DNA from: Candidatus Altarchaeum sp.
Lineage (GTDB): Archaea > Altiarchaeota > Altiarchaeia > Altiarchaeales > Altiarchaeaceae
Assembly: GCA_018260615.1 (NCBI GenBank)
Contig: JAGWDQ010000088.1
Coordinates: 18,307 to 44,675, forward strand
Direction: 5' to 3'
Length of the DNA stretch: 26,369 nt
Shown: in pieces, positions 12,035 to 13,125 of the stretch
Layout: each line of letters starts with the position of its first letter
Position numbering within the stretch: the first letter of the stretch is position 1
Made by a program: the position numbers and the translations under genes
The notes under the pieces: generated by a model
Told to the model about the DNA's origin: nothing
Seen by the model: the letters and a program-made list of their open reading frames with translations, nothing else
The model's database searches: none

Positions 12035-12520
12035 ATGTTGCCAATATGTAATATATGTGCAAAGACGAGGGTTTTGTGTGCATCTTGTGAAACAAAGTTA
12101 AAGAATGAGGAAATTTCGGAAATGGATGTGAAAATTGCCGAAATGATGTATGATTTTGGAAAAGGAGAGTTTGGCTTTGAAAAAGCGGTTGATGTAGGTG
12201 ATTTTGTCGTTGTATTGACGCGAAAAGAAGATATAGGTAAAATCATCGGGCCCGGAGGAGACAATTTAAGAAAAATAGAGGAGTCAATCGGAAAACTAAT
12301 AAAAGTTATGGGGGCAAGTTCAGCAGAAGAAATGATATATACTTTAATCTCTCCGGCAAATATTGTATCCACCAGCAAGTTATACAGGGCAGACGGAAGC
12401 ATTATGAGAAAGATTGCCATAAATAAGAATGATGCAGACAAGTTAAAGATGGATATATATTCTATAAAAAAGATTGTTTCAAATTTATTGCATGCCGATG
12501 TTGAGATTATTATCGGGTAA
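12035..12520 (+). CDS. Archaeal NusA-like KH-domain protein with N-terminal Cys-rich zinc motif
   Basis: CNIC...LCASC at the N-terminus, KH signature IGKIIGPGGDNLRKI. Confidence 0.75.
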   Translation: MLPICNICAKTRVLCASCETKLKNEEISEMDVKIAEMMYDFGKGEFGFEKAVDVGDFVVVLTRKEDIGKIIGPGGDNLRKIEESIGKLIKVMGASSAEEMIYTLISPANIVSTSKLYRADGSIMRKIAINKNDADKLKMDIYSIKKIVSNLLHADVEIIIG

Positions 12521-12540
12521 AATTTTGCATACCTTTTCAA

Positions 12541-12579
12541 ATGTTGAAACAAGTAATTATTGTCCGAAACGATTCAAAA
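12541..12579 (+). pseudogene. Truncated copy 1 of the pth2 5' end (MLKQVIIVRNDSK), part of a 23-aa ORF ending at 12612
   Basis: 34/39 nt identical to pth2 12790-12828 by manual alignment. Confidence 0.8.
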
Positions 12580-12581
12580 GA

Positions 12582-12610
12582 ACTTTTTTCTTTTAAAAAA
12601 AGAAAAAAGT
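12582..12610. other. Perfect 13-bp inverted repeat (hairpin)
   Basis: acttttttctttt (12582-12594), aaa loop, aaaagaaaaaagt (12598-12610). Confidence 0.7.
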
Positions 12611-12654
12611 AAACATCAGAATAAATTTTTAGAATATTTGGAATAAATTTTCAA

Positions 12655-12683
12655 ATGTTAAAACAGATAATCGTTGTCCGAAG
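12655..12683 (+). pseudogene. Truncated copy 2 of the pth2 5' end (MLKQIIVVR), abutting CRISPR repeat 1
   Basis: 24/29 nt identical to pth2 12790-12818, with conservative I/V swaps. Confidence 0.8.
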
Positions 12684-12779
12684 GTTTAAATCGCACTATA
12701 TAGTATGGAAACAAATTAGGTAAAGGTAAGTTGGCTGCACAAGTGGCCCAGTTTAAATCGCACTATGTAGTATGAAAAC
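12684..12779 (+). CRISPR. Orphan CRISPR mini-array: two 29-nt repeats and one 38-nt spacer
   Basis: R1 GTTTAAATCGCACTATATAGTATGGAAAC (12684-12712) and R2 GTTTAAATCGCACTATGTAGTATGAAAAC (12751-12779) are 27/29 identical. GTTT...GAAAC ends and internal ACTA/TAGT palindrome are typical of type I-B-like repeats. Spacer is 12713-12750. No cas genes in this window. Confidence 0.85.
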
Positions 12780-12789
12780 ATATATAAAA

Positions 12790-13125
12790 ATGCTGAAACA
12801 GGTAATTATTGTCCGAAGTGATTTAAAACTGAGCAAAGGGAAGTTATCTGCACAGGTGGCACATGCGGCAATATCTGCGGCAGAAATTTCAAAATTTAAA
12901 AAGCAATGGCTCGCAGAAGGACAGAAAAAAGTTGTTGTAAAGTGCGAATGTCTTGATGATTTGCTTGAAATTTATGAAAGAAGCAAGACATTATCCATAG
13001 CGACATCATTAATTCAGGATGCCGGCCTGACAGAAATTCCGCCGGGGACAATTACCTGTGTAGGAATAGGTCCCGATGAAGAACAAAAAATAGATAAAAT
13101 CACTAAAAATTTAAAACTTTTATAG
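12790..13125 (+). CDS. pth2: Peptidyl-tRNA hydrolase Pth2
   Basis: KQVIIVRSDLKLSKGKLSAQVAHA, W..EGQKKVVVK, IQDAGLTEIPPGTITCVGIGP and IDKITKNLKLL motifs. ATG 12790 matches the family start. The track start at 12772 lies inside repeat 2 and is in frame. Confidence 0.96.
   Translation: MLKQVIIVRSDLKLSKGKLSAQVAHAAISAAEISKFKKQWLAEGQKKVVVKCECLDDLLEIYERSKTLSIATSLIQDAGLTEIPPGTITCVGIGPDEEQKIDKITKNLKLL

Follow-up and report, generated by a model that had tools for sequence, protein, structure and literature searches.

Cre-type elements (CreA/CreR) keep a PAM and seed complementarity to a promoter, and they lie beside cas or toxin genes. Recombination between spacers and protospacers has been documented for staphylococcal CRISPR loci and phages (Varble 2019, Nat Microbiol 4:956; cited in PMC10434264); as far as the citing article describes that work, recombination there involves a phage genome and leads to transduction of the CRISPR locus. 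Self-targeting by the type I-B system of Haloferax volcanii is repaired by homologous recombination or by microhomology joining, with acquisition centred on the target (PMC7521656), and CRISPR targeting stimulates homologous recombination in Haloferax (10.1101/2025.06.18.660351). Pyrococcus furiosus samples its own chromosome heavily, including the DNA at its arrays (PMC5737086). For Altiarchaeum, CRISPR systems of types I-B and III have been described, along with two conserved repeat families (PMC8324899).

We analyzed a window of 26,369 nucleotides, the whole stretch of DNA under study, on contig C88 of a Candidatus Altiarchaeum MAG (G000; 2.2 Mb, 148 contigs). The congeners compared were G001 (isolate GA_1_1), G002 (A3), G003 (Crystal Geyser) and A. 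hamiconexum. Between a gene for a KH-domain protein and pth2, with a GINS51 gene as a further neighbor, the window carries a small CRISPR cassette. It consists of a 39-nt unit "a", the repeat R1, the 38-nt spacer "b", the repeat R2 and a second 39-nt unit "a" that leads into the rest of pth2 (Table 1). Judging from sequence comparison, we give a probability of about 0.5 to the reading that this cassette is a recombination scar of spacers copied from pth2, left when an array segment was inserted via homology. The pattern seen at four or more other housekeeping genes of G000 is best read as a recurrence of the same kind of scar.

Table 1. Features between the KH-domain protein gene and pth2 of G000, in window coordinates.
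Feature	Position	Strand	Remarks
KH-domain protein gene	12035..12520	+	Pfam KH_1/KH_5; synteny with pth2 in 4/4 Altiarchaeum genomes
i1, 20 nt intergenic, 3' end ttttcaa	12521..12540	+	Native position, as the G001 stretch ending in ttttcag
Copy 1, truncated pth2 start (nt 1-39)	12541..12579	+	34/39 vs resident gene; open for 23 codons; syntenic gene-start position
Multi-copy hairpin element (GAACTTTTTTCTTTTAAAAAAAGAAAAAAGTAAACAT...) cutting off copy 1	12580..12630	.	3' boundary uncertain
a2, left 39-nt unit "a" (pth2 -10..+29)	12645..12683	+	36/39 vs G001 allele
Copy 2, pth2-start part of a2	12655..12683	+	24/29 vs resident pth2
R1, CRISPR repeat DR-A	12684..12712	+	1 mismatch vs genome consensus
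b, 38-nt spacer = pth2 nt 37-74, sense	12713..12750	+	29/38 vs resident gene; 32/38 vs G001/hamiconexum alleles
R2, CRISPR repeat DR-A	12751..12779	+	1 mismatch; GAAAAC end
a3, right 39-nt unit "a" (10 nt + pth2 nt 1-29)	12780..12818	+	First 28 nt = G002 allele
Resident intact pth2, 111 aa	12790..13125	+	Pfam PTH2, E 2e-38, full-length match
TTA (12823-12825) and protospacer of b in resident gene	12823..12863	+	9 mismatches vs spacer

The R-b-R-a cassette measures 135 nt, comprises two units and has each of its junctions at a repeat end. On the left, a2 runs up to the first base of R1, and the intergenic DNA before it looks native; because an AT-rich hairpin element overlaps the left edge of this native context, the edge has no firm position. 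On the right, a3 follows R2 directly, with atatataaaa as the 10 nt upstream of the pth2 ATG, and the last 8 nt of R2, ATGAAAAC, are in frame with pth2 (ORF from 12772). An earlier, sequence-only reading of this DNA had described three tandem pth2 5' ends with mostly synonymous or conservative differences, a shared ttttcaa before copies 1 and 2 (12534-12540 and 12648-12654), and a copy 2 that abuts R1 and continues colinearly in the spacer with 7 nt of the gene missing. All of this we find in the window, at the identities given in Table 1. The missing nucleotides, TGATTTA, are the PAM-containing interval between the neighboring protospacers of "a" and "b". Repeat analysis groups the three pth2 starts into one family within the window, and a blast of the pth2 start against the whole genome returned copy 1 as its sole other match (30 nt, 93%, E 4e-6). 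More than 20 copies of the hairpin element behind copy 1 lie on other contigs, often 3' of tRNA genes. Upstream of copy 2 we found no convincing decayed repeat or canonical leader. The same reading pointed to microhomology between GATTTAAA in the gene and GTTTAAA in the repeat. The microhomology was not used for the junction between copy 2 and R1, because that junction is the first base of the repeat. Microhomology joining at TTTAAA would keep TGA before TTTAAA, whereas a complete repeat starts at the junction, and we rejected it for this junction.

Like staphylococcal spacer-phage recombination, the cassette has a spacer as the short homology arm that joins repeat-spacer units to target DNA. 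Unlike that case, as far as it is described in the citing article, the partner here is the cell's own chromosome and the genes concerned are essential; the product is fixed, the gene stays intact through a spacer-length duplication and several loci are involved, all of which we infer from sequence only. The likeness to Haloferax is a type I-B system in a (probably polyploid) archaeon with spacers from related species. Repair in Haloferax, in contrast, restores the wild type or deletes the target, and in an incomplete literature search we found no report of repeat-spacer insertion at the target there. The hot spots of P. furiosus account for chromosomal and array-adjacent DNA as spacers in archaea, but acquisition there is transient, in cultures, with no fixed cassettes or target duplications. 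Two repeats and one spacer away from cas genes, partly complementary to a nearby gene, also resemble orphan mini-arrays, solitary repeats and CRISPR-derived regulatory RNAs of the Cre type (Shmakov et al. 2023; cited in PMC12612501). Here, however, the seed is broken (mismatches at 4, 6, 7 and 9, with TTA present) and the target lies within housekeeping coding sequence; the neighbors are the KH gene, pth2 and GINS51 rather than cas or toxin genes, and the repeats are not conserved in the congeners. Because of the broken seed, the lack of a cas or toxin partner and the lack of conservation, we do not class the locus as Cre-type. The same incomplete search turned up no account of repeat-spacer cassettes that had become fixed at the chromosomal protospacers of housekeeping genes.

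A metagenomic MAG could in principle hold strain variants of the pth2 start stitched together with CRISPR reads, and the sequence-only reading had named such a chimera as a threat to its interpretation. As an independent check we used the Logan contigs of two public groundwater runs from one study; a third run contributed no sequence. In sample X1 a single 4.1-kb contig covers 12579-13000 with 0 differences and at the depth of its flanks. Sample X2 holds a variant strain with 13 SNPs of its own, one of them in the spacer, on contigs covering 12580-12713 and 12686-13000. Since independent contigs from two samples carry it in one piece, the order copy 2-R1-spacer-R2-pth2 is not a chimera. R1 and R2 each have a private variant, making the path through them unique, and the order R-spacer-R-pth2 is also found in independently assembled congeners. 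The link between copy 1 and copy 2 is of a different kind. The contigs with copy 1 and with copy 2 share only a 30-nt multi-copy hairpin (12579-12608), in a region where depth rises 5-13x, and the link across it rests on the MAG assembly. Overall, an assembly artefact is largely excluded at this locus and we consider it extremely unlikely; the other four loci with the same signature, described below, are taken from the MAG assembly.

Both Altiarchaeum repeat families are present in G000. R1 and R2 are of the DR-A repeat, which had 0 matches in shuffled sequence and has arrays on C73, C139 and C130; each differs by 1 nt from the consensus of these arrays and of the G001 C44 array. The cas1 gene lies on C131, adjoining a large array of the second repeat family. 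DR-A spacers (n=66) are 33-42 nt long, mostly 35-38 with a mode of 36-37, and "b" with 38 nt and "a" with 39 nt fit this range. The leader motif shared by G001 C44 and the G000 arrays on C139 and C130 is absent before R1, where the gene-start copies occupy the site. TTA stands 5' of 4/8 self-derived spacers against a background of 3.2%, in a post hoc count with some freedom in the choice of allele. The 5' flank of "a" is AAT or AAG, with no TTA, in any allele seen. When the 174 array spacers of G000, G001 and G003 were blasted, one extra off-array match appeared (5' AAA, 3' TAA), too few for deriving a PAM. Among the assembled contigs, in which DR-A arrays are short or cut by contig ends, no donor array had "a" and "b" as neighbors.

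The flanks of the cassette are syntenic housekeeping genes in four Altiarchaeum genomes, which argues against a mini-array carried by a mobile element. What spacer-protospacer recombination predicts is present: the same spacer-length sequence lies on both sides of a repeat, with the junctions at the repeat ends. This holds at a2-R1 and at R2-a3, and also on C79, C98, C130 and C139.

We compared the same interval in the congeners. G001 and A. hamiconexum have no repeats there; about 22 nt with ttttcag at the 3' end separate the KH stop from pth2. In G002, 4 nt separate the KH stop from an R1 that is split by a hairpin insert of about 45 nt, followed by a 32-nt spacer, a half-decayed R2 that has lost its 3' half, and pth2. 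The spacers of G002 and G000 derive from one region of pth2 and share their 3' end; extra gene starts are absent from the G002 locus. G003 has three variant repeats followed by an antisense spacer, which corresponds to pth2 nt -2..+34 in reverse complement; a decayed repeat then leads to pth2. Four identical metagenome contigs show this arrangement. G002 and G003 carry pth2-derived spacers other than that of G000, and both of these abut one and the same TTTAAA. This palindrome has the sense spacer of G000 against one side and the antisense spacer of G003 against the other, and each of the two has TTA 5' of it on its own strand. The earlier proposal that events were focused on this PAM site is supported. 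Between the G000 and G002 spacers, 6/8 differences fall at third codon positions (p about 0.02, confounded by base composition). We discarded this codon-position bias as a test of one versus two acquisition events because it is too weak.

Each of the three pth2 spacers matches the allele of another lineage more closely than the gene of its own genome: 32/38 versus 29/38 in G000, 28/32 versus 21/32 in G002, and 32/36 versus 27/36 in G003. The idea that copy 2 and the spacer together look like a second pth2 allele is supported in G000, where the two match the G001/hamiconexum alleles at 27/29 and 32/38, compared with 24/29 and 29/38 for the resident gene. A huberiarchaeal or viral source for this allele was dismissed, as its 84-93% DNA identity to Altiarchaeum alleles makes it clearly congeneric. 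The KH gene of G000 is closest to that of G001/hamiconexum (88% aa). Within a3 the first 28 nt are identical to G002, against a locus average of 82% to that genome; after a3 ordinary divergence resumes, and the body of pth2 is slightly closer to G001 (85%). These allele assignments rest on stretches of 29-39 nt.

The better fit to foreign alleles in 3/3 genomes would also be expected of a functional cis element. In one form, a crRNA from "b" would cut the pth2 of congeners and spare the resident gene; in another, R2 would serve as a promoter or a Cas6 processing site. Type I complexes leave every sixth position unpaired. Outside these positions "b" mismatches the G001 allele only at 19 and 32, and the resident gene at six positions, including 4 and 7 in the seed. 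As to the repeat, its first bases are TTTAAAT, roughly 27 nt from its end, and at several loci an ATG lies 1-10 nt downstream of it; within R2, an ATG is in frame with pth2. Yet the PAM of the G001 allele is TTG and not TTA, the repeats decay in the congeners (split R1 and R2 without its 3' half in G002, degenerate repeats in G003), and the distance from repeat to ATG varies (10, about 17 and about 24 nt). The repeat ATG is in frame at 6-7/12 loci, not clearly above the one-third expected. From these sequence features we regard a functional element of either form as unlikely. Quite doubtful, too, is a reading of such cassettes as "linked guards" beside essential genes, whose crRNA would fit the alleles of competing congeners but not the resident allele. 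If it were true, cleavage of incoming homologous DNA would keep or even spread the resident allele together with its guard, as an allele-specific drive or exclusion device, and spacer-guided recombination would in addition scatter repeats that become gene 5' ends or promoters.

Against its own gene the cassette is probably inert as a guide today, although "b" retains a repeat on each side and a TTA-flanked target in pth2. The protospacer in resident pth2 (12826-12863) has nine mismatches to "b", at spacer positions 4, 6, 7, 9, 15, 21, 22, 30 and 36; in type I systems seed mismatches prevent target binding, and positions 4 and 7 lie in the seed. The pth2 transcript may, incidentally, take some of its 5' sequence from R2.

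To determine how common the arrangement is in G000, we examined the approximately 16 orphan DR-A loci, solitary repeats or mini-arrays outside the longer arrays. The order spacer, repeat, same sequence is found at 5/16 orphan loci, the pth2 locus on C88 and four further ones on C79, C98, C130 and C139. Comparable similarity of the flanks occurs at 2.8% of 3000 random sites, giving a binomial probability of about 6e-5 for 5/16. The periods of the signature are 62-68 nt, which is the CRISPR period, and the copies start and stop exactly at repeat ends. C139 has two 39-nt spacers with exactly the sequence of the opening 39 nt of a traB-like gene; on C130 the match is 35/37 to the 3' end of aroA; on C79 a phosphoglycerate-mutase-like gene is matched at its start, with about 29/33; and on C98 a yjeF-like gene is involved. 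The C139 and C130 loci have a leader motif like that of the large G001 C44 array. C139 also sits at a synteny break between gltX and traB, the two sides of which are on different contigs, without repeats there, in 3/3 congeners.

C98 provides an allelic precedent. In pairwise alignment G003 has the empty site, and G000 has the same sequence plus one insertion of 65 nt, made up of a repeat (29) and 36 nt. Compared with the 36 nt that precede the insertion point, the inserted 36 nt represent a different version, that of G002 (35/36). Only the last 17 nt of the insert match the resident sequence, which ends at gene position +7 before the repeat. As the inserted allele differs from the resident one, it was brought in and not carved out. 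At this locus a single repeat-spacer unit, with a spacer derived from the allele of another lineage, occupies precisely the site of its protospacer, and the product is exactly what a single crossover between spacer and chromosome gives, whether the unit came from an excised circle or from an array.

Other rearrangements are found in G000 as well. On C87 the homology to relatives sets in 2 nt downstream of a repeat that is read in frame as part of a new N-terminus, and on C109 a repeat lies within coding sequence. At truD on C13 a copy of the gene start is followed by hairpin elements and then by the gene. G000 has many tandem duplications of 50-200 nt, among them repeat-free duplications of gene starts.

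The sequence-only reading had left two routes open, repeated break-and-repair or gene replacement at the PAM, and insertion of repeats directly into a gene copy, turning it into a guide in situ with no capture of a prespacer by Cas1-Cas2. Recombination or break-and-repair was the right class of explanation. In the second route repeats would have entered resident pth2 at spacer-length intervals, and in its favor colinearity is kept from copy 2 through the 7-nt gap into the spacer, all with one G001-like allele type, and repeats do occur inside coding sequence elsewhere, in frame on C87 and on C109. We know of no activity that inserts bare repeats. The route demands a 7-nt deletion at R1 plus a second gene copy, and it cannot yield the antisense spacer of G003; moreover, the G002 spacer exists without a copy 2, and the 36 nt inserted at C98 are of a different allele from the resident. 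The units are of spacer length (39 and 38 nt) with junctions at repeat ends, as Cas1-Cas2 makes them, and the TTA enrichment at self-derived spacers likewise argues against formation without Cas1-Cas2. We therefore consider guide formation in situ very unlikely, and the earlier interpretation is partly supported, in that recombination at the PAM site holds and a guide made without Cas1-Cas2 does not.

A more serious alternative, which we consider possible though rather improbable, dispenses with spacer-protospacer recombination. An old array between the KH gene and pth2 would have taken up adjacent DNA, with integration nicks creating free ends nearby, and the extra gene starts would be unrelated duplications or hairpin insertions. 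CRISPR arrays are hot spots of self-derived spacers in P. furiosus (PMC5737086), and arrays with pth2-derived spacers stand at this position in three species. The frequent tandem duplications of G000, and the C13 gene start duplicated with hairpin elements between the copies, would supply the rest. However, the mini-arrays at the locus are leaderless, a distance of 4 nt separates R1 from the KH stop in G002, and spacers sampled near one array would be expected across all arrays. Acquisition in cis also leaves unexplained why copy 2 ends at R1 and why the stretch from R2 to +29 is one spacer length; nor does it explain the allelic 65-nt insertion at C98 or the better fit of the spacers to other lineages' alleles in 3/3 genomes.

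We favor the recombination scar, which could have arisen as follows. Spacer length, repeat junctions and the PAM suggest that type I-B machinery took "a" (-10..+29, 39 nt) and "b" (+37..+74, 38 nt, beside TTA) into a DR-A array, from the cell's own allele or, more likely, from that of a related Altiarchaeum lineage. An R-b-R-a segment, most simply a circle formed by recombination between repeats, would then have recombined via "a" with the chromosomal start of pth2. A single crossover near the 3' end of "a" would give native upstream DNA with "a", then R1-b-R2, then "a" with the rest of pth2, which is the anatomy observed. The gene would survive because the right-hand "a" rebuilds the pth2 start. 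Copy 2 and the spacer would be colinear because "a" and "b" are neighboring protospacers, 7 nt apart, stored as neighboring spacers. Under the model the left copy should be native, and a2 is G001-like (36/39), as is the KH gene; the left part of the right copy should come from the donor, and the first 28 nt of a3 are those of G002. With a repeat in place of the PAM beside the rebuilt start, the cell would escape self-targeting through "a". Copy 1 and its hairpin would be a separate, further duplication of the gene start, as at truD on C13. Several points count against the scar model. Copy 1 calls for an additional event, and the state of G002, which has no left copy, requires either a deletion or another kind of crossover. 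TTA is absent 5' of "a" in the alleles seen, and the assembled contigs yielded no donor array. The post hoc PAM, the short stretches behind the allele assignments, the unfixed left edge before copy 2 and the repeat-free duplications of gene starts weigh against it as well.

If this reading holds, the CRISPR memory of a chromosome does more than kill by accident or restrict gene flow; spacers would be portable homology arms that write repeat-spacer units back at their source genes. This would explain orphan repeats and mini-arrays at gene ends, the movement of arrays and the breaks in gene order at arrays, such as that between gltX and traB. It would also explain defused self-targeting, because the repeat replaces the PAM. 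The order spacer, repeat, same sequence would be a simple, countable signature that can be searched for in any genome, and the mechanism, a variant of known processes, would be testable with standard genetics in Haloferax.

The second of the two 29-nt CRISPR repeats at the pth2 start (R2) carries an ATG within its last 8 nt (ATGAAAAC, from window position 12772; the stretch up to the pth2 start is 12772-12792). As this ATG is in frame with pth2, the longest pth2 ORF begins within R2. This in-frame relation recurs at contigs C139, C2, C129, and C92; it is absent at C79, C98, C136, and C44. A solitary repeat with three mismatches is found in the Crystal Geyser congener (G003 C220:1973-2001, locus L111), where 4 nt lie between the repeat end and a cas1-like start codon.

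Within the Candidatus Altarchaeum MAG (G000), a glycogen-debranching-like gene contains an in-frame repeat near its start (C87:24626-24654; L050:427-455). The predicted N-terminus across it reads MSESPVM-FKSDYVVWK-A-EYLITNGLGG, and homology to the three congeners begins 2 nt 3' of the repeat. A SAM-methyltransferase-like frame is broken by three repeats at C109:21582-21888, two of the three being split by hairpin inserts. There, an 85-nt 'spacer' codes for the methyltransferase region as far as motif I (..ILDLG), and the frame picks up again past the last repeat, from the ATG of that repeat.

Entire genes are also flanked by two repeats, resembling giant spacers. At G000 C53:41430-42240 the enclosed ORF is of about 250 aa and its start ATG is the one in the last 8 nt of the repeat. 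In isolate GA_1_1 (G001 C44:14115-14650, L112) the enclosed gene is RNase H-like and lies within a large array. In the MAG, the family of the pth2-cassette repeat (DR-A) is present only in short or truncated arrays. A second repeat family (GTTTGAATAGAACCAGTGTGGTATTGAAAT) has a large array, which follows cas1 at C131:13136-22100.

The multi-copy GAACTTTTTTCTTTTAAAAAAAGAAAAAA(cactccgAAAAAAGAAAAAA)GTAAACATTAGAAAAATTT element is present at window 12580-12630 and in more than 20 other places, often directly 3' of tRNA genes or gene ends. Possible identities are a MITE and a terminator-like hairpin. A hairpin element with core ...aaaatctccgagcgNNagcgaggtgat, about 45 nt in length and reaching 220 nt at most, is found within CRISPR repeats of the MAG and congener A3 (G002), with the insertion point always at nt 16/17 of the repeat (CACTAT|GTAGTA). 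This hairpin resembles either a small mobile element targeting the repeat centre or an element with repeat halves at its ends.

Locations of the repeat-splitting hairpin and examples of other copies of the multi-copy element
Element	Genome	Location
Repeat-splitting hairpin	G000	C13:12453-12580
Repeat-splitting hairpin	G000	C44:58014-58264
Repeat-splitting hairpin	G000	C109:21696-21888
Repeat-splitting hairpin	G000	C136:19471-19544
Repeat-splitting hairpin	G000	C73:5863
Repeat-splitting hairpin	G002	L041, about 1990-2065
Multi-copy element		C114:7165-7237
Multi-copy element		C70:22217-22533
Multi-copy element		C139:6375-6519
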